Origin: Candidatus Bathyarchaeota archaeon
Lineage (GTDB): Archaea > Thermoproteota > Bathyarchaeia > Bathyarchaeales > Bathycorpusculaceae
DNA: 64,000 bases
Assembly (NCBI GenBank): GCA_963702095.1
Contig: OY969706.1
Span: forward strand, 64,001-128,000
Direction of reading: 5' to 3'
In this document: positions 1 through 22,123 of the stretch, piece after piece
Layout: each line of letters begins with the position of its first letter
How positions within the stretch are numbered: the first letter of the stretch is position 1
The notes under the pieces: model-generated
Databases searched by the model: none
What the model was told of the DNA's origin: nothing
The model's input: only the letters and a program-made list of their open reading frames with translations
Position numbers and translations under genes: made by a program

Positions 1-3
1 GGT

Positions 4-456
4 TTGAAACTGCTTGATTATCCAGAGATTAAGGTGCTCAACATGGATCCTGCGTTGCTTGAGGCGTGGAATCCGCAGCCCAGCGGCGAAAAACTTTTGG
101 TGCCCGTGACACATGTTGTTTCAGCGGCGATTATGGGTTCGGGTTTGGGCGCTAACCAGGTGAATTCAGGCGACTATGACATTCAACTCTTCGATGAAGC
201 AATAGTTACGCAGTATGGGCTTGGCAGTTTGAGGCTGGGTGATTTAGTCGCCATTATCGATGCGGACCACTCTTTTGGGCGGATTTACCGTCAAGGCGCA
301 ATCTCCGTCGGCGTTGTGGTCCATACTAATTGTGTTTCGGCGGGGCACGGTCCCGGAGTGGTGACTTTGATGACTTCGCCTGATGGTCGAATTGTTCCTC
401 AGATAAGTTCGAAAGCAAACATTGCTTCTCTGCTAAATTTGAGAACAGATATATAA
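4..456 (+). CDS. DUF4438-family protein (C-terminal part; truncated by window start)
   Basis: Motifs IMGSGLG, GDYDIQ, LRLGDLVAI, GHGPGV typical of DUF4438/TM1086-like proteins. Confidence 0.75.
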   Translation: MKLLDYPEIKVLNMDPALLEAWNPQPSGEKLLVPVTHVVSAAIMGSGLGANQVNSGDYDIQLFDEAIVTQYGLGSLRLGDLVAIIDADHSFGRIYRQGAISVGVVVHTNCVSAGHGPGVVTLMTSPDGRIVPQISSKANIASLLNLRTDI

Positions 457-505
457 GATAGTTAATTCAAATAATGGAACAAAAAGGAAAGAAGAGGACA
501 AAGTA

Positions 506-799
506 ATGCCCGTTAAGCGAAAAAGCCGAGGAAGAGCAAAAGGAAGCAAAGGAAGCAGTACCCTTGTTCAATGTGCAAATTGCGGTGCAATGGTGCCACG
601 GGATAAGGCGAAACGTTCAACCCGCAGAGTATCCTTTGTTGAACCCCAACTTGCCAAAGAACTCAGGCAAAAAGGCACTTTCTTAGCTTCTTGGGTGGAC
701 ACCAAGTATTACTGTATTTCATGTGCTGTTCACCGCGGTATCGTTAAGGTTAGAGCCGAAAACGAACGGCACTCAAGAGGTTATAAAAGAAGGTATTAA
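506..799 (+). CDS. rps26e: 30S ribosomal protein S26e
   Basis: MPVKRKSRGR...CANCGAMVPRDKA...YCISCAVH zinc-binding signature. Confidence 0.97.
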   Translation: MPVKRKSRGRAKGSKGSSTLVQCANCGAMVPRDKAKRSTRRVSFVEPQLAKELRQKGTFLASWVDTKYYCISCAVHRGIVKVRAENERHSRGYKRRY

Positions 800-803
800 G
801 CGG

Positions 804-1469
804 TTAAACTGCTGCTTTTTTCTTTAATTCTTTATAGACATGTGCCGCTCTTTGTAAAACGGTTACAATCGACAGAATCGCTATTATGGCTACTCCGTAA
901 CCGAGTACAGGTAACCAGAAGAACCCAATTATGCTAACAACAGCTAAAATCAGCATGCGTTCTGCCCGCTCAGCAATACCCACTGACTCCATCTTTACCC
1001 CAATTACTTCTGCTCTGGCACGAGTGTAGCTAACCAGCATAGATGCAACTAAAGCAGCCAAAGCAATGACTGTCCCCCAGTAACTACCAAAAGCTGCTGC
1101 ACATAATCCTGCTATTATAATGCCTGCGTAGGATGCTCCGTCTGCGAACCGATCAAGTACTGAATCAAAGAAACCTCCAAAAGCAGTTGTCTGCTGATAA
1201 GTGCGCGCAACAATTCCATCCAAAGTATCGCAGAATCCAGAGGCAAGCATAAGGAACGTCGCTAAAAGCAAAAGCCAAAGCGAATCCACCGTTGTTAAGG
1301 CGTAGCTGACTGCTGAGGCAAATGCAAGTATGAACCCAACTATGCTTATGCGGTTAGGTGTAAAGCCTAATCTGTGTGCTATTTTTGCTTCGGTTGTGAG
1401 CATCTGTTGAATCTGCTGTTTTAGTTTGGTGAGCAAGGCTTCTTTCGTCTCAGTTGATGTGGTAGGCAA
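804..1469 (-). CDS. CDP-alcohol phosphatidyltransferase (archaetidylinositol-phosphate synthase-like)
   Basis: TPNRIS and DTLDGIVAR...GGFFDSVLDRFAD signature; multi-TM. Confidence 0.9.
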   Translation of the reverse strand: MPTTSTETKEALLTKLKQQIQQMLTTEAKIAHRLGFTPNRISIVGFILAFASAVSYALTTVDSLWLLLLATFLMLASGFCDTLDGIVARTYQQTTAFGGFFDSVLDRFADGASYAGIIIAGLCAAAFGSYWGTVIALAALVASMLVSYTRARAEVIGVKMESVGIAERAERMLILAVVSIIGFFWLPVLGYGVAIIAILSIVTVLQRAAHVYKELKKKAAV

Positions 1470-1657
1470 TTACGGGTAGGCTGTAGAAAAGGCTTTCTTA
1501 GTTTCACCATCGGTATTGTCCAACATTTTTCCATTATGGGCGGTTTTCAATGAAACTTATTAGGGAGAACCCATAATATTTGACAGTGACGTCCTGTCGC
1601 CTAACAAAGCGTGCAACAGCCACGTTACACCTAAGCAAACATAAAGGAGAAAAATGT

Positions 1658-1945
1658 ATGACTGAAAACGCAGATGTTATTTTCGTCGGAAACAAACCTC
1701 CAATGAGCTATGTTCTGGCAATTATTACGAGCCTCTCAGCAAACAACCTAAACGAAATAACCCTCAAAGCCAGAGGCCAAGCCATAACCACCGCAGTTGA
1801 CGTAGCAGAGATTGCAAGAAACCGTTTCATAAAAGACCTCAAAGTAACTAAAATCGCTATTGGAACAGTCGAGATGCCACCTCGTGAGGGCGAGAGCAAG
1901 TCCAGAATGGTTTCCACGATGGAAATAACCCTTACCAAAAAGTAA
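1658..1945 (+). CDS. albA: DNA/RNA-binding protein Alba
   Basis: IFVGNKPPMSYV...KARGQAITTAVDVAEI; ATG at 1658 preferred over 1580. Confidence 0.95.
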   Translation: MTENADVIFVGNKPPMSYVLAIITSLSANNLNEITLKARGQAITTAVDVAEIARNRFIKDLKVTKIAIGTVEMPPREGESKSRMVSTMEITLTKK

Positions 1946-2086: not shown

Positions 2087-3369
2087 ATGGCTTTGGACGC
2101 TGTGCTAACGGCAATCGTTACCATCTGCATTCTGGTTTTCTCAGCCAAGGTCTTGGGCGAAATTTTCTCCTGGCGCAAAATCCCCTCGGTGCTCGGTGAA
2201 TTATTCGCTGGCATACTGCTCGGACCCTTCGCCTTAGGTTCCCTGTTGGTAATCAATGGCACGGCATTAATCCAGATAAACGAGATTGTGCGGGCATTCG
2301 GAGAAATCGGCGGAATCCTCATCCTGTTCGTTGCAGGATTAGAGATGACCTTTAGGGATTTCCGCAAAGTCGGCGCCGCAGGATTCGCCGTTGGAACTAT
2401 CGGCGTAGTTGTACCCTTCGTTATGGGCTACGGCACTGCTTTGGCTCTGAATTTAGGTGTCGAAGCAGCGCTAGTGGTCGGAGCAGCCCTAGTGGCGACC
2501 AGCATATCAATCACGGCGCTGGTGCTTCAGGAACTCAACCAAAGCAGACGCATCGAATCCCGACTGATGATAAGCGCCGCAGTCGTAGACGACGTTTTGG
2601 GGCTTGCAATCTTAGGTGTCATCGTCTCCTTCATATCCACCTCAACACCCATAACAGCCCTAAACACCGTTACCTTAATCGGCACTTCTCTGGGGCTCTG
2701 GCTTGCCATGACCGTCTTCTCAGCATTTGCTCTGCCCCGAATAATCGATTTGACAGCGAAAGGCAAAGAGTCCACGGTGGAGGCGGCTGCAACTGCCTCA
2801 TGCTTCGGAGCTTCCGCGTTAGCTGCTGCACTTGGTTTATCGCCCATAGTGGGTGCCTTCGCCGCGGGAATGGCGGTTGCCAGCTCCAAAGCTATAGAGC
2901 AAATACGCAATTACACCAAAAAAATCAGTGTCGTCTTTTCCCCCGTCTTCTTCGCGTTGGCAGGCGCACAATTCGACATTAGAAGCTTCATCACTACTAA
3001 CTGGTTCTTCTACGCCACCTTTATAGCCCTCGTTATTGTTGCCATTGCAAGCAAAATGATTGGATGCGGGTTGCCAGCGATTCACTTTCTGAAAAGCCGT
3101 AGCAAGGGCCTTAAAGTCGGCTACGGAATGATTTCTCGGGGAGAAGTCGGCGCTCATCGTGGCGGGTGTGGCTATCTCTGCTGGCGCCATCACTCAGGAA
3201 CTCTACGCTGCAATCTTGGGCATGATAATGATTACAACGCTTTTAGCGCCTCTTCTTCTTAGGCGGGCGCTGCGAGAAGGAGCAGCTAGAGGAGGAACCT
3301 TCAAAGTCTGAGGTGGACACTACTGCTCCAGATTACATGCCGACTTATCCACTGGACTTCACAGAATAA
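2087..3369 (+). CDS. Cation:proton antiporter (CPA2/NapA-like); two apparent 1-nt insertions near 3152 and 3269
   Basis: ATSISIT, AAVVDDVLG, MISRGEV motifs; removing one G at each GGCGC restores GLIVAG... and a reading frame to TAA 3369. Confidence 0.85.
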
Positions 3370-3389
3370 ACCAGTTCCAACGCGATTTA

Positions 3390-3883
3390 AACTTGAATTG
3401 ATGTTTGGTTTGCCGGGACTCTGGAACCAGAATAAAGAAAGAGAAGAAATGGAAAATGCAGATAACATTCCTTTGCAAATTTGACTATGTTCGTTTCAAT
3501 TTCAGGGCAAAACAACTTTTTATTCAGACGCCAGAGTTCGGTTTAGCCACTTTCCCCCGCTTTTTTTATTGCTTTTTTTGTTTGTGGGAATTCCTTATAG
3601 GGGTTGGGTTGTTGCTGGTGACGGGCGACTTAATTCCCGATGGACCATGCTAGTGCCTACTACACTGGGCTGTTCACTGCTATATAAATGGAAAAAAAAT
3701 GATACGTGCCCACATACCTACACGGCAGCAACTTCTGCATGGAGCCATGTACCCCATGTGGAGAAAAACGCATATACCACCGAAACAGACGATGAAAAGC
3801 GTTGCACCCCAAAAAAGCAACCGCTCCCAATTGCATTCTTGTGGCACTCCGCAAATCGCCACACCCACCTAAAGAGAGAGAAC
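3390..3883 (+). repeat. Dispersed intergenic repeat, copy A (long form, ~500 bp)
   Basis: Aligns by eye with reverse complement of 36062-36585 along most of its length, and with 32116-32313 and 57922-58166 in the 3' ~200 bp (GATAC..CATGGAGCCATG..GTGGA..TGGCA..CGCCACACCCAC..AAAGAGAG). Confidence 0.85.
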
Positions 3884-11469: not shown

Positions 11470-11578
11470 GCAACCCCTAATTCTATTTTTTTAAATACCC
11501 GATAATTAAAATCAGTTTTTGATTTTACATAAAATGAGAAGGCTTAAAAACATAGACCGCCAAAGGGCAAACTAAGAG

Positions 11579-11788
11579 TTGAAAAATATGAACAATGTAT
11601 CTAAAGCTGATTTAGCAGCGTCATTTAAAAGAGAAATTGAACTTAGCAACCAAGTCCTGAAGGTTGCTGAAGATGCCCTGAAACAGCTAACACAACCTGA
11701 ATCAATCGAGTATTGGAAAAATGTGAAGATTGAATATCAACAACGAACAAAGGATTTTGAAGATAGGATAAAACGTCTTAAACGTTGA
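11579..11788 (+). CDS. Hypothetical small coiled-coil protein
   Basis: 69-aa helical ORF preceded by a TATA-like TTAAAAA. Confidence 0.55.
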   Translation: MKNMNNVSKADLAASFKREIELSNQVLKVAEDALKQLTQPESIEYWKNVKIEYQQRTKDFEDRIKRLKR

Positions 11789-11803
11789 CAGCCCGCTTCT
11801 TAA

Positions 11804-12079
11804 TCATATTTCCCCTGTGGGGTAGCCTTCTCGCTTAATGAGCTTAACACCTTTAGAATTTACCATAATTGTTTTACTGCTAAAATTTTTGTAAAGGCAG
11901 TCCTCGCTAATAAAAATGAAATGATGTTTGTCTGTGACGAATGGAAAGCGTTTCTGCAGTCGCTTAATTTCTTCTTGGCTTTCGGGTTCAATGATAAAGC
12001 CCTCTGTGAAAACTCTTTTGCATATTTCGCATTTCATCGGTTCCTTAATTTCTGTTTTATCGAACCATACAGCCTTCAA
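11804..12079 (-). CDS. Hypothetical protein, possible zinc finger
   Basis: CEIC...SEDC; SD-like AGGTG before TTG. Confidence 0.5.
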   Translation of the reverse strand: MKAVWFDKTEIKEPMKCEICKRVFTEGFIIEPESQEEIKRLQKRFPFVTDKHHFIFISEDCLYKNFSSKTIMVNSKGVKLIKREGYPTGEI

Positions 12080-12300
12080 ACGTTAACACCTTTAAGAGAT
12101 GCTTTTCGGGATGAACGAACAACTGCGACCCACGCTGTATTTTGAGGAACACAAACATGAAGCACTTGTTGCCCGTTCACCTTTCCGTGCTAAAATACTA
12201 TCAATAGACTCTTCATATAAAACCGATGTGCCGTCTCTCTGAAGAAGCGAAAAAGCGAGAAGTTCAGTATTCGATAAAGTAAACTTTATATTAAAATCAG

Positions 12301-12549
12301 ATGATAGGTAGTCGGCGATTGACTTTGGGAAAAAAAGAACCTCTCTTGTTCAAATTTAAAAAAGAAGTCATGGGTCCGAGTCGGCTAAGTTTTATAGAAA
12401 ACGAAGAATATGACGAAACTTTGGACATGGTACTGGCAGTTCAAGATGGCGTCAAACAAATAGCAATCGATGGAAAATGTCGAATAGGAACTAAGAAAGC
12501 TGACTTGGAAAGAAGCGAAGACCAAAAAGATAGCAACATGTGGGGTTAA
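12301..12549 (+). CDS. Putative graspetide (ATP-grasp RiPP) precursor peptide
   Basis: Immediately upstream of ATP-grasp ligase; leader EPLLFKF (cf. microviridin PFFARFL); C-terminal core GTKKADLERSEDQKD with T/K donors and D/E acceptors; may start at TTG 12319. Confidence 0.75.
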   Translation: MIGSRRLTLGKKEPLLFKFKKEVMGPSRLSFIENEEYDETLDMVLAVQDGVKQIAIDGKCRIGTKKADLERSEDQKDSNMWG

Positions 12550-12590
12550 ACTGTTCATTATTATTGTTTCAAAGAAATCAACCGTGAATA

Positions 12591-13561
12591 TTGATGATTG
12601 TTTTACTTACCAACAAGTTTGACATTTCTGTTGACTTTGTGGTAAGGTATCTTCGTGAGCATAACGAGGAATTCTTACGAATAAACACAGAAGATTTGTT
12701 AGCCCAAGAGGTGCAAGTCAGTTTACCCGATTTTTCTTACGTAGTAGCGAATAAAGAGAAGACCTATAATTTAGCGAAAAACTTACACGCAGTCTTATTT
12801 AGAAGACCTGGAAGCCGTTCGAGTTTACCCCTAAGAATCGTCGTCCATCAAAAGCAACCGTAAATTATATCCAAAATCAATGGCACACATTTTTGGAAAG
12901 CATGTGCACCCTTGAAAATGTTTTGTGGATAAACAATCCACTGAAGAACCATCGTGCTGAGAACAAAATACTTCAGTTGAGACTTGCCTCAAAGATAGGT
13001 TTTAACATACCAAAAACTTGCATAACTTCTTCGAAGGAAAAGGCGTTGGAGTTTTCAAGAGATTGTGGAAATCAAATAATCGCTAAAGCGTTATCTATTC
13101 CATTAGTTGAATATCCAGAGAAAGATTTTTTCATATTTACAAACAAGGTTAGCTCTATTGAAACTTTTACCGAATCAGAGTTCAAATTAGCTCCAACTAT
13201 ATTTCAGGAAGCGATAACCCCAAAAAGTGATTATCGCATCACTGTAGTTGGAAAAAACTGTTTTGCCGTTAAGATAGAATCTCCCGATAACATGGCGATT
13301 CCGATTGATTGGAGATTAGATAAAAGGCGACTAAAATATACATCAGTCAAAATACCTTCAGACGTTGAGGCTAAATGTTTTAAACTTGTCAAAGATTTAG
13401 GTTTAGTCTTTGGAGCTATTGACCTCATAGAAACAAAAGGTTCATTCTATTTTCTTGAGATAAATCCTAATGGGGAATGGGGCTGGCTCCAAAAAGAAGC
13501 TAATCTACCTATTGCGGAAAGCCTCGCCAATATTCTCATTAGTTGTAATGGAGTTCAATGA
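12591..13561 (+). CDS. MvdC/MvdD-like ATP-grasp RiPP macrocyclase; apparent 1-nt deletion near 12813
   Basis: VLFRRP, WINNP..AENKILQL, PKTCIT, IFQEAI, DYRITVVG, IDWR, FGAIDLI, FLEINPNGEWGWL; the two ORFs join as RRPG(R/K)PFEF...QWHTFLESM. Confidence 0.9.
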
Positions 13562-14210
13562 CATGGATAAGATGCAAATTTTAGAATTTCTTTTTCCCGC
13601 TGGTGCTGCTTGGATTATTAACAAAGAATTGTTGTCTAATAATTCAAAGAAAGCAAAAAATGCAAAGGTAGCAACTCAGGATTGGAACAAAAGATTTGGA
13701 ACGAAAGAGGTTACATTGATTTCTAAAATGGCTGATGATTTGTATAATTTTGAGATGCAAAGACTGAATCTTTTGGCGAGGAAGGGCACTTCTCTTTTGG
13801 CAGCAGCGGGATTTGTTATATCTCTTACATCTTTGATTTTAGCATTTGGAAAAGATTGGCTTTATTATGCTGGGTCGTCACTAGTGCTTTTTTTCATACT
13901 CTTGGCAGTTATTAACTTTGTTGCATCAGCGGTTTCCGCTTCTAAGGCACTTAAAATATCGCCGCTTCACCTATTGACAATTAGTGATGCAGGCGACATT
14001 CTGGATAATAAAGTACTGAATAAAGATGAATTGACAAATCAATGGGCGTCACAGAAGCTTCTTGACGTGGATTTGAACTATGACATTATTCTCACAATAA
14101 CTAATTGGCTTGACGCTGCACAAGGTTCTTTCTTAAGAGGAATCTATTCAATTGGGTTTGGCTTTGCAATACTGACTTTCATAATTGTTTTCTTTCCAAA
14201 AATTGCCTAA
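13548..14210 (+). CDS. 3-TM membrane protein (possibly Pycsar-effector/DUF5706-like)
   Basis: Overlaps ligase stop; RLNLLARKGTSLL followed by two TMs, a soluble linker and a C-terminal TM. Confidence 0.6.
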   Translation: MEFNDMDKMQILEFLFPAGAAWIINKELLSNNSKKAKNAKVATQDWNKRFGTKEVTLISKMADDLYNFEMQRLNLLARKGTSLLAAAGFVISLTSLILAFGKDWLYYAGSSLVLFFILLAVINFVASAVSASKALKISPLHLLTISDAGDILDNKVLNKDELTNQWASQKLLDVDLNYDIILTITNWLDAAQGSFLRGIYSIGFGFAILTFIIVFFPKIA

Positions 14211-14253
14211 AAACTTTTAGCAACAATAATGGCTAATTAAGAGAGGTGAGAAC

Positions 14254-14331
14254 ATGGGCAAAGGCGGAAAACCAAGCACAATAGGAAATCCATCCGGAAA
14301 AGGTCGGGACAATAACCCACCAAGGAAATAA
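14254..14331 (+). CDS. 25-aa micro-ORF MGKGGKPSTIGNPSGKGRDNNPPRK
   Basis: Strong GAGGTGA SD just upstream of ATG; followed by T-rich terminator-like sequence. Confidence 0.6.
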   Translation: MGKGGKPSTIGNPSGKGRDNNPPRK

Positions 14332-14559
14332 TCATTCTGCGTTTGAAAATAGAGGAAGTGGGGTACCTACTCTTCGTTCTCTTCGTTTTGATGTTCTCGA
14401 TTATTTGGTTTTATTTTTATTCATCATTTGTTTCTATTTGAAATCCTGACCAAATCTTCAACCAGAGTTAGACATATTATGAATTTAAACCAAAAAATAA
14501 ACGCTTAGAGGCAAAAACTAAAAGCTGATTAAAACAACTAATCTGAGCAAGGACAAAAA

Positions 14560-15033
14560 ATGAGTGCCGATATTATTACTCAGATATTGGGAATAATTGG
14601 GACCTCCACTGGAGTATTGGCTTTGATTATTTCCTATCGGACATACGCCAATGCAAGACCGAATTTGAAGGTCAACGTAAAGAAAATTGAACATTATTCT
14701 GATACTTTCATTAAAGGAAAAAACATGACAATTGCGACCCAATTAGCAATCAGCAATTGTGGAGACCGACCTACAACTCTAAACGAAATAGAAGCCCAAT
14801 TCACATACAAGGGAAGACAATACAAATTCAAAGAAGAATTCATAAGAACGGTAACAGATGGTGAAGAAAATGTCGGGTATAGCAAAATATCAGTCGAGCC
14901 TCATGAGACAACAGACGAATACGTATATCTCAAGGGTTTAATCTCAAGCATCCCAAAAGAAATAATTTTTGATTTCAGGATTTACCATACACATGGTGTA
15001 TGTTCTTTTAGGGAGACTTCTTCTAAGCGTTGA
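14560..15033 (+). CDS. Hypothetical N-terminally anchored beta-rich protein
   Basis: N-terminal TM then Ig-like ISNCGDRPTTL pattern. Confidence 0.65.
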   Translation: MSADIITQILGIIGTSTGVLALIISYRTYANARPNLKVNVKKIEHYSDTFIKGKNMTIATQLAISNCGDRPTTLNEIEAQFTYKGRQYKFKEEFIRTVTDGEENVGYSKISVEPHETTDEYVYLKGLISSIPKEIIFDFRIYHTHGVCSFRETSSKR

Positions 15034-15790
15034 ATAAGTTGTGCAGGGTAACAATGTAAATTGCGATATTCGAAGCATGTTATGTTACAATCTTTTGAGA
15101 TTGTCTATTGCTTTAGCGCTTTAGAATGCAACCCAAAAGTATAGCAGCGTTTTCGTTTTCAACCTTGCTATTAAAAGCATCAATATCCAGAATTTTCGCA
15201 CTTTTAACACGTAAAGTCGAAAAAAAACGAGCAAAAATTCTCCGTAAAACGCTAAAATAAGGATGATTTGAGGAGCTTTTAGCGTTATGCTGTCAGCGTT
15301 CATGCGTTATTCATGCGTTCGAAGCCGATGGCAAACATTCAACAGTGTAAAAAGCGCTTTATGTCCATTTGTAATCTGACGTGAAACGTCGTTTTTTATT
15401 CAAAAAATCGCATTTTTCCTCGCTTAGAACGGTGAAACAGATAACGATGTTATCTCACTTCGGACTTACCTCGAAAAGTACAACAACTTTAAAAATGACT
15501 CAGTTTAGGTTTTAACGATATGCTGAGTGGCTGTTGAACCGTTGAGTGTTCAACTCATGTTCGTAATGCGTCAGCGTTCCAGAATTGCGGAATTTCAGTT
15601 TATGGAAAAATATAACACACACGAAGAATGAAGAATCAAAAGGCATGTGTTTGTTTTAAGCTTGAGGTTTGGATTTTATATCATTAAAGCGTTTGTCTCT
15701 CAAATCTTGAAATTTCGCAATTCTAAAAGCGTTTAAGCGTTTCCTTTAATGACCGTTAAACCAATAAACGTAAAATGAATATTGAAGGAT

Positions 15791-15961
15791 ATGAAACGAA
15801 ATATCCTTAGTGGCTTTCCGTATGAGGTAACGAAAGACGGAAGCATCACTACTATCCGATTCTATCCAAAAAAGTCAAACGCTGAATATCCAAATCAAAG
15901 CGAGTTTGTATTGAAACTAAACGAAACTGATAGACAAACGCTAATCAAGCTTTTATCGTAA
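15791..15961 (+). CDS. Hypothetical 56-aa protein (MKRNILSGFPYEVTKDG...)
   Basis: Manually translated ORF below the 60-aa track cutoff; protein-like composition. Confidence 0.45.
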   Translation: MKRNILSGFPYEVTKDGSITTIRFYPKKSNAEYPNQSEFVLKLNETDRQTLIKLLS

Positions 15962-16083
15962 ATCACGAAGCTTTCATAGCGTTGGTTTCAAGCGTTTGAT
16001 ACGTTAGAACCTGAGTGCATAAAATGAAAACTTTACATTATTCAACAAAAATGGGAAAAAGGATTTGTTAATTTAGAACTGTT

Positions 16084-16377
16084 TTAGGGTTGATATCCCC
16101 CTCCGCTTGCTCGGATTTCAGCTACTCGTTGTGTTAGCCATTGTGCTTCATTACCAGAATAATTTTGCGAAATGTAGCTATTGATATGTTCCAGCGTCCA
16201 AGGCATGTTAGCTAAAGATTGGGCGAGGTTTTCGTTAGCCGCATCAACTTGCTTTTGTGCCTCATCTGCGCGATTGTTGAGGTCTATTTGATGCATTATT
16301 GACATGCCAAGCAATGTTACAAAACAAAGAAGACCAATTATGATTAACGCTAATTCTATTGCATGTTTGCTTTTCAT
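16084..16377 (-). CDS. Hypothetical single-TM coiled-coil protein
   Basis: GAGGT SD, N-terminal TM. Confidence 0.6.
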   Translation of the reverse strand: MKSKHAIELALIIIGLLCFVTLLGMSIMHQIDLNNRADEAQKQVDAANENLAQSLANMPWTLEHINSYISQNYSGNEAQWLTQRVAEIRASGGGYQP

Positions 16378-16433
16378 TTTATATACCTCATCACGAGTTT
16401 CAAAGTTTTTAGATATCTCAAAAAAAACGATGG

Positions 16434-16724
16434 TTACGCTGGGGCTTTGATTGCCTCAGCGATTGAATAAAGGTGATTGAAATGACTTTTTTCGGTAGGC
16501 TTAACGTATGCGATTTTGCCTTCTTTTTTCAGCGATGCCATTTTTGTTCGTATATAGGCGCGTCCTTGGTCAGGGTCTTTAACGCCCAATTTATCGCTAA
16601 TTTCGCGTGATGATGCAGGGTGCCCTATGCTTTGAACGGCTGTTATTAGCTGTTCAGTTGAGAAATTCAGTTTTTCATTTTGGGTTTTGGTTTTTGAGGT
16701 TTTTGTTTTGGGTGTTTTTGACAT
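16434..16724 (-). CDS. wHTH DNA-binding protein
   Basis: PASSREISDKLG...IRTKMASLKKEGKI; GGTGA SD before ATG 16724. Confidence 0.65.
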   Translation of the reverse strand: MSKTPKTKTSKTKTQNEKLNFSTEQLITAVQSIGHPASSREISDKLGVKDPDQGRAYIRTKMASLKKEGKIAYVKPTEKSHFNHLYSIAEAIKAPA

Positions 16725-17260
16725 TTGATTCACCATGCATGTACAATATTTAGGCGTTGATTTAACCCGACTTGACTGTTTAGAGCTTAATTTGAGTCTG
16801 TTACACCGAATCATTGTTGAAGCAGTCTCATTCAAGAAACATGGACTCATTGGTCAGGTCTTTTGAGAATTGATGCCTTGAAACGCGCGAGCGCTGAAGA
16901 ACGAACAAAGTGCGAAAAATTGTCCTTGCTCTGGTAGGTACCCGCTGGAAAATTTTGGGATTCAAAACCTTAAGCGATTCATAGAAGAATTGAAATTGCG
17001 AAATTTCATGTTTACAGAAAAGCTGTTGCATGTATGAGGCAGAAGTGTTCGAAAAAACTTTGAATGATTTTGGTTTAAGGGGCTTCCCATTTGTTAGAGC
17101 CTATCATTCCCTAAAATTGTAATTTCGCAATTCCAAAAATGAAAACAATCGGTTGTTTTAGCTCCGAAATTGCGGAATTTCACATTTATGGAATGCTTAA
17201 CCCCTAACAAAACATGAGATGCCTTAAAACAATTAAATTAAAAAAGAAAAGTGAAAGGTA

Positions 17261-18388
17261 TTAGGCTAAAGTTATCAGCCATTCTGTTCCTTCGCCACGT
17301 TGTCTTTTAATGTAGCCGTAGGTTTCCAACTTTTTGACTAACCGAGATGCTGTTGCTTCGTCAATGTTGAGGTATGAGGCTAACTCTTTTTGGTTAACGG
17401 TTTTCTCTCTTAACAGATGTACCGTTTCAACAGCCATTTGCTTATGCTCTTTGTTGTTTTGGAAGACATCAGTCAGTTCTAAATCCATATCAGCAACTAA
17501 TTGTTTAGTGGTTATTTCATTGTTGACTGTTCCAATTGTAATGGGAAAGACATTGTTACCTAAGACGGCGGCTTCTATGCTTTTGCGGATGTATTTTAAA
17601 TAACGTCTGAATATGCCTCTACTTAATTGAGCTATGAGTGTTAACGCTTCTTCAGTAAACGGTTCGACTGTTCCCCATTTGCTTTTGTATGCTTCAACCA
17701 TTTCCTCTGGTTTCATGGGTGAAAGCTCAACAGCAATCATTTTACCCAAGAAAAAGTGACCGCCATACATCTCCTTCTGTATGCCTAATACTAAAGTCGG
17801 TAATGTCCTTCTCTTAGGGACGATGGAAATAGTGGTTATGTCTCCATCTGTTTCAGTGACTTCTTGTTTTGTTGTTAAGTCTGCTACCTGTTTCCATAGA
17901 CTCTCTATGTTGCGTAGGTCTTTGCTCATAGCGTCTTTGTTTTTCTTGTTATAGTCTGGAAGGTCAATGAAGAGGATGTTGAACTTTGAGAGGAAAGCGA
18001 TGCTTGAAACAAGTGGTAACGTTTCCATTTCATTCTTTGCTTTGTAACGTCGGAAATATTCTTCTGCCTGCTTTAATCGCTCTTGATAGTCAGGAAGCCA
18101 ACGGAAAAACAGTGTTCGATACCCTTTAGCCTCAAACTTTTGGGCTAACATTTCCAATAGTCTTGTCTTTCCTATGCCTTGAAGCCCTATAACTCCAATG
18201 AATCCTTCATGGGAGTGTGATAGCATGAACTCTAAGCGCTTTGCGTCTTCAGTCATGTAATAGTTTTCTGTTGCTTCTTTGATTGCTTCGCCTTGCAGAT
18301 GGGTAGCCCATTCATACACCTTTGAGGCTCCATGCATTGATGGGTCTGCCTGTGCTTCGCGTAATATTTTCAAACAACGCCCCATCAT
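17261..18388 (-). CDS. P-loop (AAA+-like) ATPase with C-terminal MarR-type wHTH
   Basis: Walker A GLQGIGKT, Walker B ILFID, SRGIFR sensor-like, QKELASYLNIDEATASRLVKKLE. Confidence 0.8.
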   Translation of the reverse strand: MMGRCLKILREAQADPSMHGASKVYEWATHLQGEAIKEATENYYMTEDAKRLEFMLSHSHEGFIGVIGLQGIGKTRLLEMLAQKFEAKGYRTLFFRWLPDYQERLKQAEEYFRRYKAKNEMETLPLVSSIAFLSKFNILFIDLPDYNKKNKDAMSKDLRNIESLWKQVADLTTKQEVTETDGDITTISIVPKRRTLPTLVLGIQKEMYGGHFFLGKMIAVELSPMKPEEMVEAYKSKWGTVEPFTEEALTLIAQLSRGIFRRYLKYIRKSIEAAVLGNNVFPITIGTVNNEITTKQLVADMDLELTDVFQNNKEHKQMAVETVHLLREKTVNQKELASYLNIDEATASRLVKKLETYGYIKRQRGEGTEWLITLA

Positions 18389-18694
18389 TTAGGGTTCCTC
18401 TAAATTGTGTAACGATGAAATTCCGCAATTCCACCGAGGTTTGTTTGGTCTTTGGTCGTAGATTATGCCTTTCCCGTCTGCCATTATCAGAACCTCTCGT
18501 TCTGACGGTGCTTTTGCTATCATTTCATCGCCGATTTTGGAAGATATTTGGTTTATTTCCGAATTCGAGCCTTCGAATATCAACATAACAGTGCCATCGT
18601 TCAATGCTTTTCTCGTTGATGGTGCGGTGTTTATTTTAGCTTCATAGCTCTTTTTTGCGATTATTGTCAAAGTTCCTCTACTTGTGTCAATCAT
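18389..18694 (-). CDS. Hypothetical protein, translationally coupled to the ATPase
   Basis: Stop TAA directly abuts ATG of the ATPase. Confidence 0.6.
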   Translation of the reverse strand: MIDTSRGTLTIIAKKSYEAKINTAPSTRKALNDGTVMLIFEGSNSEINQISSKIGDEMIAKAPSEREVLIMADGKGIIYDQRPNKPRWNCGISSLHNLEEP

Positions 18695-18718
18695 GATTTA
18701 TCCCTCGGTTATCGATTA

Positions 18719-18916
18719 GTTGGTGCGGTTGTTATCGCAGAACTCAGGAGAGAACAAGGCAGTATATGTCCAAATGTACTTCAGAGCGGAAGCCTCCAGC
18801 GCATAGGAGGAGAAACAAGGATTCCGAGAACGTTAAGAACCCTGCTCATGCGGAAGATTGTTCAAGGTGCGCGTGAATGACCCCTGAGCCTCTTTTGCGA
18901 CAACCGCAAAGCCAAC
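18719..18916 (+). ncRNA. Candidate ~200-nt structured non-coding RNA (unknown family)
   Basis: Nested helices plus potential pseudoknot; four wobble positions are G-U only on the + strand; A-rich junctions. Confidence 0.65.
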
Positions 18917-18919
18917 AGT

Positions 18920-19888
18920 TTACGCCTTATTGTTTGCCTCCATGTGCTCGATTTCTTTCTTGTAGAAAACTTCGAGTTTTTTTATGACTGCACCTTTAGC
19001 ACTACCATTCCTGTATTGCAGCCGGTCGCTTGTGACAGTAGCTAATGTTGGTAAGGTTGTTTCAGGCGAAGTCCTGTAAAAGTCCAATCTATGTCTTAAA
19101 GTGCTACAAAGGTCATTTTCCATGATTCTAAGTTTCTCGCGTCCTTCGATGAATTTTTTTGCACTCTTAACGCTCTGAACTTCAGCGAATTCCTCTAATG
19201 CCTTGGTGACTTCCTGAGCTAATCGCGTGTGCTGTTTGACAATTTTCTCGCCTTCAGCGAGTATTTCCTTGACCTTTTCTGAGTTGTTCCGTTCTTTTAG
19301 TTCTTGTTCGAATGCTGGAATCAGCTTGTCATAATAGTTTTTTTGGAGTTCTTCAACAATGGCTCTTTGCTCGGACGTTTCTTTCTTGAACTTTTGCATC
19401 TGAGCACCGTGTAGAATCCAATTTTTGCTGCCACCTGTAGGAGGTTCTAAGGCTATGTGAACTTCATGGTTTTCCTCACTCTCTGCATCGTTTATCTGTG
19501 ATTCCCATGCGTTACATTGGTCAATTGTTATCCGACACGCATTTTTGTCTGCTATGAAGTCTTCCAGACAATTTTTAAGTTGGTAATTAGGCATGCTCTT
19601 TGACGCGTTGATTAGGTCTTCAGGCATTGGTAGAATATCGATGTCAGGTAGGCAATAATTCGCAATTTTTTTAATTGGTTGTCGTGCTAATTTTTGTGTT
19701 TTTATGAATTGCCGAGACCTTAATTCTGAGTTCGTTTGTTTGCGCCATTCTTCGCATGCTTCTATGCTGGTGTCTCTTGGGGCAGATTGGTGAGTATTTT
19801 CTATTGCACCTCCGCCGTGATTCCATAAGTCATTGTTTGCGAAACGTTCTTCTCGGTCTTTGATTTCTTCAGTGATTTTTCCGCTCAT
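18920..19888 (-). CDS. Hypothetical coiled-coil protein
   Basis: 322-aa charged helical ORF overlapping upstream stop. Confidence 0.7.
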   Translation of the reverse strand: MSGKITEEIKDREERFANNDLWNHGGGAIENTHQSAPRDTSIEACEEWRKQTNSELRSRQFIKTQKLARQPIKKIANYCLPDIDILPMPEDLINASKSMPNYQLKNCLEDFIADKNACRITIDQCNAWESQINDAESEENHEVHIALEPPTGGSKNWILHGAQMQKFKKETSEQRAIVEELQKNYYDKLIPAFEQELKERNNSEKVKEILAEGEKIVKQHTRLAQEVTKALEEFAEVQSVKSAKKFIEGREKLRIMENDLCSTLRHRLDFYRTSPETTLPTLATVTSDRLQYRNGSAKGAVIKKLEVFYKKEIEHMEANNKA

Positions 19889-20028
19889 TTTGTTACGCCT
19901 CCATGTTTTTCGTAGAGGTCAAGGCATTCGTTCAAGAACTCGTCATATTTGACAGCCCGAGAACACAACGCCTTGATTCTTTCAAGGGTTCCTCGCTTGA
20001 TGTTTATGGTTGTGATTTCTTCAATCAT
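19885..20028 (-). CDS. Small ribbon-helix-helix-like DNA-binding protein
   Basis: TTINIKRGTLERIKAL...YDEFLNECLD. Confidence 0.6.
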   Translation of the reverse strand: MIEEITTINIKRGTLERIKALCSRAVKYDEFLNECLDLYEKHGGVTK

Positions 20029-20098
20029 TTTTCTTTCCCTTTTTTGTCGCGTATTAATTACATTTATTAAATGCATGTCACATTGATGAATTTTGAAT

Positions 20099-20116
20099 AT
20101 AACAAATATTTGTTAT
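20099..20116. promoter_or_regulatory. Perfect 18-bp palindrome ATAACAAATATTTGTTAT between divergent genes
   Basis: Exact self-complementarity; between RHH gene and ORF at 20131. Confidence 0.5.
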
Positions 20117-20130
20117 GTGAAGGTAAAACG

Positions 20131-20628
20131 ATGACGATGACTAAAACTAATTCACTATGGCGCGATTATCTAAACGGGTCATATACGATTGAGAATCCAT
20201 TAACACGCAATCAAATGGATTACAACATTCGAGAGAAAGCTAAACAGATGTTGACCGACTTGCTGCTGATTTGTCAAAAAATGCCATATAATGACAGAAT
20301 AAGAATTTTTCACGATGAAGCTGTCTGGGAATCGATAGTTAAACCTCTTTTTCGTGAATTCCAAAATAACACTTGTCTTCTTTCACCTGAAGCTGAAAAG
20401 ACCAAAAAGCTAATCGAGATTCATAAAATAGCGAACGGCTGTATGAGATATGAGGTTCCATGCGACATTGTAAAATTGTTTGATGACGACTCGCCGTACA
20501 GAAGCCAAGTTAAAGTTAAGGTTTATAATAAAATGTTAGAGGAAGCCTATCATTATTCAAAGAAAAATCCAAATGTTGAAAAATTAAGGAAACATGTTGA
20601 CCAAGCGTTCGAGAATTTATGGAAATAA
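20131..20628 (+). CDS. Hypothetical protein
   Basis: ORF with AGGT SD before ATG 20131. Confidence 0.6.
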   Translation: MTMTKTNSLWRDYLNGSYTIENPLTRNQMDYNIREKAKQMLTDLLLICQKMPYNDRIRIFHDEAVWESIVKPLFREFQNNTCLLSPEAEKTKKLIEIHKIANGCMRYEVPCDIVKLFDDDSPYRSQVKVKVYNKMLEEAYHYSKKNPNVEKLRKHVDQAFENLWK

Positions 20629-20723
20629 AATCTAATGATTAGGCGTTAGATACAATGATTTCCCCGCTTGAATAAGATGAAAACTTCGCGAATAACGACA
20701 CAAATAAAGAGAAAGAATAGCGG

Positions 20724-22010
20724 TTAATCGTTGCTTACAACGATTTTTCCGCTTGGTAATGTCGCCACGAAATAATAGCCTTCACCCAACAGCACAGGAA
20801 GTTCGCTTTCTTCGATTATACGCTGACAATGTTTGCCGTCAGTGCAACCTTTAGATTTTGGCTTAGCGTTTTCTGTTTCTTTGTCTGTTGCTTCTTCCAA
20901 AGCGTCAACTTCATCTTTAATATCGAGTTGTCTGCCGATGAAGATAGATTTTTGGCGGAATATTGTTTTCATCTGATTTTCAGTTATGCCTTGAAGTTTC
21001 GCCAACATAATCAACGCTTGCTTTTTAGCCATAAGTTCAATGTCACCCTGCTCAACGGATTTGGCGTATGTTGTTTCTCCCATAGCTCGCTGATAATCTT
21101 CTCTTAATTGGTCAGGGCTGACATAAGCGCTTTCAGCTATTGTTTTTCCAACAATCTGCTTCCATTTGCTTTCAGACATGTAATTGCTTAAATGGTCAAT
21201 CAAGAATTTCCGTAAACAATGGAAACGGATGTTTTTGTTACCGTATTTGATGCCTGCCTTATCAGCGACACGCAGTAGGATTCGGGAAAGCTGAATTTCA
21301 TCTCGATATTTCAAGATGCGCTCATTAGCATCTTTACGTTCATCCCTGTCCATTTGCTCAAGGAACATTTTGATTATTGGTTTAGCGTCTGTGTCGATGA
21401 ACGGGAAAGCGGTAACATTCTCTTTCTGTGTGCATAACTCGCCTATGCTGATTGGCGTTTCGCGGTCAATATAGGCTTCCAAGTCACCGCGCCTTAAGCC
21501 GATAAAATCGCCAGCCCGCAAGCCAAACGATTTACCTACTGTTATGATGTATTTTTCTGTTAAGTCAGCGTGGTCACACATTTTCTTTAAATCGTCTTTG
21601 CTGAAGCGATAATCCTCTTGAACGCGCCTAAATTCAGTTAGTTTTGCCTTTTCCGTATTTCTAAACTCTAAGCCTAAACGGTGATATGCGAAGAATGAAC
21701 GCACCGAAGTTATGCCAGCAACGGCAGAGCCTGAAGCCTGTTCTTTACTTTCAATTAACCATTGTTTGAAAGATAACGTCTTTTTCTCCCAAGCGTATTC
21801 TTTGTCTGTTTTACGGTTTGCGAGAATTTGGTCACCTGTCATGCCAACGTATTCAAGAAAATATTTCCACATTGTTTGGTAGCTTGATTTTGTGGATTTC
21901 TTTAAAGCATTCAACCATTCGTTGGTTGCCAAATCGTTGGGAAATTTATCCTTTGACTTGTCACCTGTTTTTTCGTTAATGTTTTCGTTCATGTTTGTGT
22001 TCCTCAACAT
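20724..22010 (-). CDS. Tyrosine recombinase/integrase
   Basis: GLRAGD (R), RFHCLRK (HxxR), ESAYV (Y); C-terminal VATLPSGKIVV tail. Confidence 0.92.
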   Translation of the reverse strand: MLRNTNMNENINEKTGDKSKDKFPNDLATNEWLNALKKSTKSSYQTMWKYFLEYVGMTGDQILANRKTDKEYAWEKKTLSFKQWLIESKEQASGSAVAGITSVRSFFAYHRLGLEFRNTEKAKLTEFRRVQEDYRFSKDDLKKMCDHADLTEKYIITVGKSFGLRAGDFIGLRRGDLEAYIDRETPISIGELCTQKENVTAFPFIDTDAKPIIKMFLEQMDRDERKDANERILKYRDEIQLSRILLRVADKAGIKYGNKNIRFHCLRKFLIDHLSNYMSESKWKQIVGKTIAESAYVSPDQLREDYQRAMGETTYAKSVEQGDIELMAKKQALIMLAKLQGITENQMKTIFRQKSIFIGRQLDIKDEVDALEEATDKETENAKPKSKGCTDGKHCQRIIEESELPVLLGEGYYFVATLPSGKIVVSND

Positions 22011-22123
22011 GAACGTATGTCAGTGCCGTATTTATGTGAGTCCGTAAACTGATTTATTTAATCGTTTTTTTTTAAAAAAAAGCCTTTTCAGTCGTACAAA
22101 AAAGGAAAAGAAGTTAGAGAAGA

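Follow-up and report, generated by a model that had tools for sequence, protein, structure and literature searches.

The 64,000-nt stretch of Bathyarchaeia DNA analysed here (the window) carries an integrated mobile element in which a 225-nt gap (18695-18919) separates two ORFs of the minus strand, one of 322 aa (18920-19888) and one of 101 aa (18389-18694). A preliminary description, made from the letters of the window, placed in this gap a multi-helix, pseudoknotted RNA of about 200 nt running antisense to both neighbours, and held that it fills the gap almost exactly, which the ORF boundaries bear out. To our knowledge, uncultured archaea and their mobile elements have so far yielded very few families of structured RNA. 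What does this gap encode, on which strand, and to which gene does it belong?

The nine helices of the preliminary description, the pseudoknot included, lie where it had placed them and pair as described, and its wobble count, four helices with one G-U each, was also correct. On the window sequence alone, only the closing stem goes beyond chance. This stem comprises 27 bp in the window. The duplex formed by its two 36-nt arms has an energy of -36.3 kcal/mol; among 20,000 positions drawn at random from this genome and given the same geometry, one reached that value. Compared with shuffled sequences, the whole 198 nt reaches only z = -2.16 on the plus strand and -2.38 on the minus strand, and the 134-nt interior (18749-18882) folds no better than shuffles (z = +0.89 and +0.51, respectively). 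The exact structure first drawn has an energy of -53.4 kcal/mol, about the mean best fold of shuffles (-52.2 kcal/mol). A genome-wide sliding-window seed scan for inverted repeats missed the locus because of the geometry of the arms and is not a control. Energies of mirrored structures were disregarded, since non-canonical pairs make them unreliable.

The gap has a G+C content of 49-51%, against 38% for the mobile element, and the element is single-copy in the 2.94-Mb genome. BLAST of the gap gave nothing usable in 61 relatives and nothing in 119 other genomes of the genus or in plasmid and phage collections; 27-nt matches in three genomes lie inside a conserved protein-coding gene and were taken as chance. 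A MITE or insertion sequence was rejected on the grounds of the single copy, the negative BLAST in the 119 genomes and flanks that on reading show no duplication. Rfam gave no match at the gathering score in the whole window and nothing in 18695-18919 at E values up to 10; over the homologous loci L013, L014, L005, L009, L008, L050 and L051 the only match was a tRNA elsewhere in L005. The statement that the family is not a recognised one thus holds for Rfam 15, for the element and its homologues alike, and among the papers listed by a full-text literature search none joined Bathyarchaeia with structured RNA.

Homologues were reached not by DNA similarity but through a weak protein match. In alignment A5, sense-strand motifs from the stop codon onward are common to the window, the genomes G093 and G112 and the partial metagenome contig L005. 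A covariance model, R1 (length 1-205), was built from three rows and searched over 120 genomes of the genus. Its full-length matches are G093 (217 bits), G112 (177 bits), the window (152 bits) and a new member, G080 (72 bits, E 2e-20); two weak matches, in G110 (17 bits) and G288 (16.5 bits), are both uncertain. R1 gave no further matches in a draw of 151 genomes from the family or of 151 from the class, and it matched nothing in G129 (L013), G008 (L010, L046) or G003 (L014). In viral contigs a scan for the motif pattern yielded 43 stretches, none of which matched R1 at E <= 0.1. The similarity to the window of the 73 nt of L005 was not significant (115 of 2000 shuffles as high), nor was that between the G129 gap and the window gap (362 of 1000 shuffles as high). 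The idea of an invertible segment found no support, the interior tail of L005 being similar in neither orientation. The family is tiny, being confined to one genus and a few metagenome contigs, and occurs in a few integrated mobile elements of Bathyarchaeia.

Table 1. Features of the locus in window coordinates, with RNA letters given for the sense strand.
Feature	Position	Strand	Remarks
Coiled-coil protein gene, 322 aa, all-helical	18920..19888	-	RNA element begins at its stop codon
Whole RNA element	18711..18922	-	R1 match of 152 bits over the full length 1-205; begins with the TAA stop of the upstream gene
Closing stem, 5' arm	18883..18916	-	GUUGG 18916-18912, UGCGGUUGU 18908-18900, CGCAAAA 18899-18893, CUCAGG 18888-18883
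GCGCA of the 5' junction	18868..18872	-	Proposed pseudoknot partner of the H3 loop
Hairpin H2	18813..18847	-	5' strand opens with conserved AGGG; consensus helix 4/5; 5 double-sided pair changes
Hairpin H3, CCUCC/GGAGG	18793..18810	-	Loop UAUGCGCU (18805-18798); the CCTCC/GGAGG helix of the preliminary description
Hairpin H4, CUUC/GAAG	18779..18792	-	Loop CGCUCU; in the window followed only by UACAUUU
Variable spacer between H4 and 3' arm	18749..18778	-	Holds most of a window-specific hairpin, AGUACAU/AUAUACU (18780-18761)
Closing stem, 3' arm	18719..18748	-	CCUGAG 18748-18743, UUCUGCG 18742-18736, ACAACCGCA 18732-18724, CCAAC 18723-18719
Start signals of the 101-aa gene	18692..18707	-	Shine-Dalgarno-like GAGGG 18707-18703, ATG 18694-18692; outside the structure

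The consensus runs from 5' to 3' through the stop codon, the 5' arm, a junction, the hairpins H1, H2, H3 and H4, the variable spacer and the 3' arm (Table 1). Its closing stem, of about 30 bp, is interrupted by A-rich internal loops that are conserved, and the conserved unpaired motifs include AAAAG, UGCGGAAA and the GCGC of the H3 loop. H1 does not form in the window. H4 is followed by U6 in G093, U5 in G080 and U4 in G112, and by no U-run in the window. T-runs also stand after the 3' arm in G112 and G080, and the sequence beyond them resembles, on reading, a TATA box and a Shine-Dalgarno site.

The preliminary description had tied its candidate to compensatory changes among homologues, and these were found. 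Alignment A8 holds five rows, four strong and one weak, fitted to R1. In it 88.2% of the cells pair, versus 80.0 +/- 1.5 in shuffles (0 of 500), and 18 pairs are changed on both sides, versus 7.1 +/- 2.0 (0 of 500), counts that lean towards the structure, since three of the A8 rows had served to build the model to which A8 was fitted. Slid controls gave 38-52% paired cells and 3-6 double-sided changes. Consensus helices 1 and 2, which form the closing stem, account for 11 double-sided changes; the window row is poorly aligned, with 10 non-pairs in the outer stem although its own stem has 27 bp. Among the helices first listed, the homologues thus uphold the closing stem and CCTCC/GGAGG and lend weak support to the pseudoknot. 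GAACAA/TTGTTC and GAGCGG/CTGCTC, which clash with the conserved H2 and H4, are unsupported, as is AGTATAT/ATGTACT, which lies in the spacer, not common to the other members.

The pseudoknot would pair GCGCA/UGCGC in the window, GCGCGU/ACGCGC in G112 and AGCGU/GCGCU in G093; in G080 the pairing AAGCGU/ACGCUU forms only when the stem end opens. No alignment puts the pseudoknot columns in register, so the pairing is judged solely by a per-sequence shuffle test (Fisher p = 0.008). As far as comparison of homologous sequences can show, the element is real, has relatives and contains helices that covary, and the relatives bear out the picture of a multi-helix, probably pseudoknotted structure, about 200 nt long and carried by an integrated mobile element of archaea. 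The best reading is a new, rare RNA motif of Bathyarchaeia mobile elements.

The call of an antisense RNA on the plus strand was reversed. In the conserved structure 29 cells are G-U on the minus (sense) strand, against 7 that are A-C there, that is, G-U on the plus strand; the claim that wobbles are G-U only on the plus strand therefore fails on the conserved structure. The sense strand has the lower minimum free energy in all five loci compared, by 8-14 kcal/mol in four of them. The values in kcal/mol (z in brackets), sense against antisense, are -81.7 (-5.37) against -67.5 (-3.90) in G093, -74.7 (-3.70) against -66.9 (-2.62) in G112, -68.4 (-6.16) against -54.4 (-4.20) in G080 and -52.8 (-5.90) against -42.9 (-3.26) in G129. 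The window by itself favours neither strand (-64.0 (-2.76) against -63.1 (-1.98)). The hairpin followed by a U-run is present on the sense strand only. Most likely, then, the element reads on the same, minus strand as its flanking genes.

The element starts at the stop codon of the coiled-coil gene or its homologue in the window, L005, G093 and G080. G112 is probably alike; the similarity of its ORF to the 322-aa protein is weak (E about 7e-4, 27% over 105 residues). The genes downstream vary: the window has the 101-aa gene and an ATPase gene, G093 a gene for 213 aa and G112 one for 269 aa. The element is tied to the upstream coiled-coil gene and not to the downstream genes. Four homologues of the 322-aa protein and two of the 101-aa protein were found. 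Scans with the flanking proteins gave in metagenomes only L005, which extends 73 nt past the stop codon, and L006, which holds the N-terminus only; in genomes and viruses they gave nothing, save one genome scan that returned only the G129 locus. By tblastn, the 322-aa protein had no match in plasmids, and the ATPase none in plasmids and phages. The genes of the module are absent from thirteen other elements, which have only the integrase in common with this one. The 322-aa protein matches no Pfam, NCBIfam or PHROG family. Its AlphaFold model is all-helical (pLDDT 80); Foldseek against the PDB found no match at E <= 0.001 for the models of the 322-aa and 101-aa proteins, and the ESM Atlas gave no usable match for the 322-aa protein.

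We propose, and give the proposal an even chance, that the minus strand of the gap codes for a structured RNA of some 200 nt, which would form a 3'-UTR or intercistronic part of the coiled-coil gene transcript. Co-transcription with the neighbours in the window is suggested by the lack of minus-strand runs of at least five T between 20100 and 17245, except for two within the ATPase gene, and by a T6 after the ATPase stop codon. The element would act in cis and post-transcriptionally, at the 3' end of the coiled-coil message. H4 with its U-run may cause partial termination or leave a protected 3' end. In transcripts that read through, the closing stem would draw the spacer together into a compact block, and this block could insulate the upstream cistron from the downstream genes, in the window the 101-aa gene and the gene for a P-loop ATPase with a winged helix (ATPase-wHTH). 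The adjacent coiled-coil protein may bind the RNA. Termination or protection, insulation and protein binding are roles that we infer.

Hairpins that stabilise or terminate messages in the intercistronic regions and 3'-UTRs of operons are known as bacterial REP-type hairpins and intrinsic terminators, and archaeal termination requires only a U-run. Like these hairpins, the element begins right past a stop codon and leaves the ribosome-binding site of the next gene free, and, as in intrinsic terminators, U4-U6 comes after a short G+C hairpin in three of four members, the window copy being the one without a U-run. Unlike them it is far larger, its long closing stem encloses the terminator-like hairpin, and it has conserved loops and a pseudoknot candidate. 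A signal for stop-codon read-through or recoding was rejected on reading A8, whose rows differ by single-base indels within 30 nt past the stop codon and have no common frame. Several observations speak against a cis-acting RNA. In G129 the coiled-coil homologue is followed by a simple, long single hairpin with no R1 match, and G008 has a weak coiled-coil match and likewise no R1 match. The window's own genome, 90% complete, yielded no RNase III (PF14622).

Alternatively, the RNA might be excised as the trans-acting ribonucleoprotein partner of the coiled-coil protein, or be a self-cleaving ribozyme just past the stop codon, which we consider unlikely. The constant position beside the coiled-coil gene (in G112 by the weak match) would fit, as would a protein of no known family or fold match and an RNA of such size with a three-branch interior, a pseudoknot candidate and conserved unpaired motifs. 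The long closing stem also fits, such stems being typical of excised stable RNAs. G129 retains a homologue of the protein (33-35% identity with the G093 and G080 proteins) yet has only its simple hairpin, and no known ribozyme or ribonucleoprotein RNA family was matched. On reading, the closing stem is not a canonical bulge-helix-bulge, with two opposite 3-nt bulges and a 4-bp helix: its bulges on opposite strands are 2-4 nt long and 6-9 bp apart. Guide RNAs are also known from the 3' ends of transposon nuclease genes (TnpB/IscB omega-RNAs); these, too, have about 200 nt and start close to or at the stop codon of one particular mobile-element gene. Here the gene next to the RNA encodes an all-helical coiled coil, and the locus is single-copy and has no transposon end; an omega-RNA was rejected, as the 322-aa protein has no match to a nuclease family or fold. 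HEARO, GOLLD and ROOL are examples of orphan large structured RNA motifs that comparative genomics has revealed in bacteria and their mobile elements. The element is likewise a gene-associated structured RNA on a mobile element with covariation support, but it matches none of them in sequence or structure, and it has an archaeal host and a very small family.

A stem-loop acting as DNA or single-stranded DNA, either as an origin of replication or as a signal for priming in the integrated plasmid-like element, is in our view improbable. The precedent is the Sulfolobus plasmid pRN1. There an extended hairpin of about 100 nt beside the replication operon, 3' of the replication gene, is a putative origin; its integrity is required for replication, its structure is kept across pRN plasmids as the sequence diverges, and it is thought to act as DNA (PMC4234260). 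The element resembles it as a noncoding, strongly folded segment of a small archaeal plasmid or integrated element that retains structure between relatives as sequence diverges. It also lies beside replication-type genes, but only in the window and G129, where the structure stands directly upstream of a small gene and the ATPase-wHTH gene; in G222 a Prim-Pol/PriCT gene comes after a gene distantly homologous to the 101-aa one. Single-stranded DNA that tolerates G-T pairs would give equal covariation and strand bias, which counts against reading the structure as RNA.

Unlike the single pRN1 hairpin, the element is branched in four members and about 200 nt long, with conserved small hairpins and a likely pseudoknot, and only the G129 version is a single hairpin. 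It follows the coiled-coil gene and not replication genes, the downstream genes being different in G093, G112 and G080; its hairpin with U-run resembles a transcription signal, and its bias is towards the transcribed strand. Between the window and G129 the ATPase-wHTH proteins are 74% identical, yet the arms show no conservation. A better candidate for an origin is an AT-rich long hairpin 3' of the ATPase gene (17032-17260), whose sequence is conserved with G129 along with the ATPase. The motif GTTGGTGCGGTTGTT, a repeated arm pattern, has seven matches in the window at up to 3 mismatches (2.25 expected), three of them within 18618-19061; no counterpart of this pattern was seen in G129.

The antisense RNA of the preliminary description, for example a counter-transcript controlling the downstream replication genes, is very unlikely. 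The A-rich junctions it noted on the plus strand are there (unpaired bases of the window are 44% A versus 14% U), its inner helices in the window have G-U on that strand only, the interior is purine-rich on the plus strand, opposite to the flanking genes, and a T7 run (18977-18983) could end a plus-strand transcript. Against this stand the G-U counts and folding energies given above; moreover, two of the plus-strand helices are not conserved, the conserved hairpin and U-run become on the plus strand an A-run before a hairpin, and on reading there is no clear archaeal promoter box upstream. A small plus-strand gene between inverted repeats, encoding a basic 36-aa protein (18766-18876), can be set aside as scarcely credible: the ORF nearly fills an interior that folds no better than shuffles and is purine-rich on the plus strand like the coding strands of the mobile element, but no homologue was found, open frames arise by chance in T-poor sequence, 1-nt indels in the homologous RNAs break any common frame, and what is conserved is helices with compensatory changes.

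In conclusion, single-sequence folding statistics missed the conserved interior of this RNA, which came to light through homologues to which a weak protein match had led. The element adds an RNA motif of Bathyarchaeia, of a tiny family known from sequence alone, where Rfam 15 has no match. RNAs of comparable size and complexity often prove biochemically unusual. If the ribonucleoprotein or ribozyme reading were true, the element would stand for a new functional class among large archaeal RNAs, beyond a stabilising 3' structure. Anchored at the stop codon of a single orphan protein gene, the RNA provides a testable handle on post-transcriptional control or on a protein-RNA partnership.

The gap that holds the RNA element lies between two minus-strand genes of a low-G+C island (Table). 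Its G+C content is 49-51% versus 38% for the mobile element, and its sequence is a single copy in the 2.94-Mb genome. Another genome, G129, carries a related integrated element; its match to the window spans roughly 11481-22083, with 75-84% DNA identity over the integrase, ATPase and 138-aa genes. One segment of the window has no DNA match there; protein identity to G129 is 48% for the 101-aa gene and 27%, over a local alignment, for the coiled-coil gene. Judged from these alignments, the segment seems to be a module that has been swapped or is evolving fast. On contig L005, which carries the closest 322-aa homologue, the nearby tRNA gene suggests that the element there is integrated beside a tRNA gene. 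The G222 replication-protein neighbour ties the 101-aa protein family to replication modules.

Features of the locus and of related contigs (window positions unless a contig is named)
Feature	Position	Strand	Remarks
Gap holding the RNA element	18695-18919		225 nt
322-aa (coiled-coil) ORF	18920-19888	minus	flanks gap on one side
101-aa ORF	18389-18694	minus	flanks gap on other side
375-aa P-loop ATPase, C-terminal winged helix (ATPase-wHTH)	17261-18388	minus	directly after 101-aa ORF
Tyrosine integrase	20724-22010		same low-G+C island as gap genes
Segment without DNA match in G129	18478-19919		5' part of 101-aa gene to DUF7557 gene
Interior of RNA element	18749-18882		
15-nt arm motif copies	18618-18632, 18719-18733, 19047-19061; inverted at 18900-18916		
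Gap with long imperfect hairpin	17032-17260		AT-rich; just 3' of ATPase-wHTH gene
Island ORF	12893-13561		matches PHROG annotated ribosomal protein S6 glutaminyl transferase, E 9e-25
tRNA gene	L005 242-316		Rfam RF00005, 64.9 bits; ~1.8 kb upstream
Coiled-coil gene upstream of RNA, as two ORFs	L008 (G112) 1021-1911		138 + 148 aa
Noncoding G+C-rich stretch, ~350 nt	L014 (G003, different element) 3120-3470		upstream of own small ORF and ATPase-wHTH homologue
Distant 101-aa-protein homologue	L025 (G222) 2-1761		E 5e-7; directly before Prim-Pol/PriCT_1 replication protein

All nine helices listed in the preliminary description, the pseudoknot included, lie at the coordinates it gave and pair as it described. 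Chance clearly does not account for the closing stem: when 20,000 random positions of this genome were taken with equal spacing, one reached the -36.3 kcal/mol of the duplex that its two 36-nt arms form. The folding z-scores of the whole 198 nt are -2.16 (plus) and -2.38 (minus) and those of the interior +0.89 and +0.51, and the exact structure proposed earlier (-53.4 kcal/mol) is no improvement on the average of the best folds of shuffled sequences (-52.2). Judged on the window alone, the closing stem beats chance; the interior and the exact structure do no better than shuffled controls. A 15-nt motif of the stem arm (at most 3 mismatches) recurs inside both flanking genes, with 7 matches in 64 kb versus 2.25 expected, three of them within 450 bp; no equivalent was seen in G129.

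As anticipated, the element matches no Rfam family: the window has no match at gathering score, none occurs around the gap at E up to 10, and the homologous loci have none over the element. DNA searches with the gap sequence recovered no relatives, and homologues of the flanking proteins are rare (four for the 322-aa and two for the 101-aa protein). A metagenome scan yielded only L005, which stops 73 nt past the stop codon. Between the syntenic gap of G129 (153 nt) and that of the window, no sequence similarity was detectable; the G129 gap forms a long hairpin (gene strand -50.4 kcal/mol, z -5.49, versus -38.9, z -2.47, on the other strand). The 322-aa protein profile weakly matched G093, G112 and G008, and these weak matches opened the route to relatives. 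The 291-aa protein of G093 is 33% identical to its G129 counterpart (E 2e-22), and the G112 ORF matches the 322-aa protein weakly (27% over 105 residues, E about 7e-4); the G112 gene may be split or frameshifted. The DNA right after both genes aligns with the minus strand of the window gap over its full length, and the three loci share the stop codon, UUGG, AAAAG(A)GGCUCAGG, AAU.UUCCGCA.AG.AGGG, GAGGCU.C.GCU and UGCGGAAA. From these three sequences a covariance model (R1) was built, and all 120 genus genomes were searched with it; besides the three it found one additional full-length member, in G080 (72 bits, E 2e-20), and a weak match in G110. The G080 element starts at the stop codon of a 305-aa coiled-coil homologue (35% identity to that of G129, E 1e-15). 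No further convincing member was found in draws of 151 genomes each from the family and the class, none of 43 viral-contig pattern matches fitted R1, and G129, G008 and G003 gave no match.

The RNAalifold consensus has a closing stem of 27 pairs (helices 1 and 2), a small hairpin H1 (CGGAA/UUCCG, absent as a fold in the window), a hairpin H2, H3 (CCUCC/GGAGG in the window, CCUCU/AGAGG in G093, CCCC/GGGG in G112) and H4 (CUCC/GGAG in most members, CUUC/GAAG in the window). Pairs were counted on A8, a five-row alignment made with R1, which has only four strong rows, is fitted to a model made from three of them and places the window's own outer stem badly; 88.2% of its cells are paired versus 80.0 +/- 1.5% in shuffles (0/500) and 38-52% in slid controls. 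Compensatory changes are present, 18 pairs being changed on both sides versus 7.1 +/- 2.0 in shuffles (0/500) and 3-6 in slid controls; the closing stem holds 11 of the 18. The H3 loop contains GCGC or CGC in every member and can pair with a 5' junction segment, and this pairing changes in step between members: GCGCA/UGCGC in the window (per-sequence shuffle p 0.05), GCGCGU/ACGCGC in G112 (0.03), AGCGU/GCGCU in G093 (0.07) and AAGCGU/ACGCUU in G080 (0.28), which needs opening of the H3 stem end. The combined Fisher p over these four members, 0.008, lends the proposed pseudoknot modest support. The earlier fold thus holds in outline, in its closing stem, one hairpin and pseudoknot, but GAACAA/TTGTTC and GAGCGG/CTGCTC clash with H2 and H4 and lie outside the consensus, and AGTATAT/ATGTACT sits in a spacer missing from other members.

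In the window, L005, G093 and G080, a coiled-coil family gene precedes the element, which begins 0-4 nt past that gene's stop codon; in G112 it comes after the weakly matching ORF. The downstream genes vary: the window has the 101-aa and ATPase-wHTH genes, G093 (whose locus also carries an integrase) a 213-aa gene that weakly matches DUF6290, and G112 a 269-aa gene. On the best reading, the element would be a structured RNA of the sense strand, transcribed with the coiled-coil gene as a 3' untranslated or intercistronic portion of its message. Its main rival is a DNA or single-stranded-DNA stem-loop, like the putative pRN1 origin (PMC4234260). This is less likely, because the element is branched, sits after the coiled-coil gene and not after replication genes, and a better origin-like hairpin, whose sequence is conserved together with the ATPase, lies just 3' of the ATPase gene. 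That candidate origin-like stem-loop is the strongest G+C-corrected structure in the mobile element (minus -56.1 kcal/mol, z -3.99; plus -52.4, z -2.73); its arms are 92-94% identical in G129, and, read on the minus strand, the hairpin comes after a T6 run. The noncoding stretch of L014 also folds (z -4.03 on the gene strand, -1.03 on the other) and matches neither Rfam nor R1. The element might instead be the trans-acting RNA of a ribonucleoprotein, or a ribozyme, but this is less probable.

The window alone does not discriminate between the strands, and its unpaired bases are A-rich on plus. Counting over the consensus pairs gives 29 G-U cells for the gene strand; A-C cells, which would be G-U if the other strand were read, number 7. 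In each of the five loci the gene strand folds with a lower MFE and a stronger z than its complement (sense versus antisense, kcal/mol: window -64.0 and -63.1; G093 -81.7 and -67.5; G112 -74.7 and -66.9; G080 -68.4 and -54.4; G129 -52.8 and -42.9). On this strand H4 is followed by U6 in G093, U5 in G080 and U4 in G112, the window having only UACAUUU. The antisense RNA of the preliminary description is unlikely, since G-U count, folding and H4 with its U-run all favour the gene strand. T-runs follow the 3' arm in G112 and G080, and, as judged by eye, the sequence past them resembles a TATA box and a Shine-Dalgarno site. From the window's operon start region to the T6 just after the ATPase gene, the minus strand has no T-run of at least 5 except two inside the ATPase gene, so that the gap is probably transcribed through. 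For a 36-aa ORF on the plus strand of the interior, no homologue was found, and its frame is not conserved.

As a sense-strand RNA, the element may act in cis after transcription. H4 with the U-run may protect the 3' end of the transcript or bring about partial termination; the closing stem could also make a compact domain that separates the upstream cistron from what lies downstream. The neighbouring coiled-coil protein, to which no family was assigned, may bind the RNA; its AlphaFold model is all-helical (pLDDT 80) with no fold match, and that of the 101-aa protein suggests a small alpha/beta fold, with no confident match. The motif family is very small. It is a real and apparently so far undescribed RNA motif of Bathyarchaeia integrated elements.
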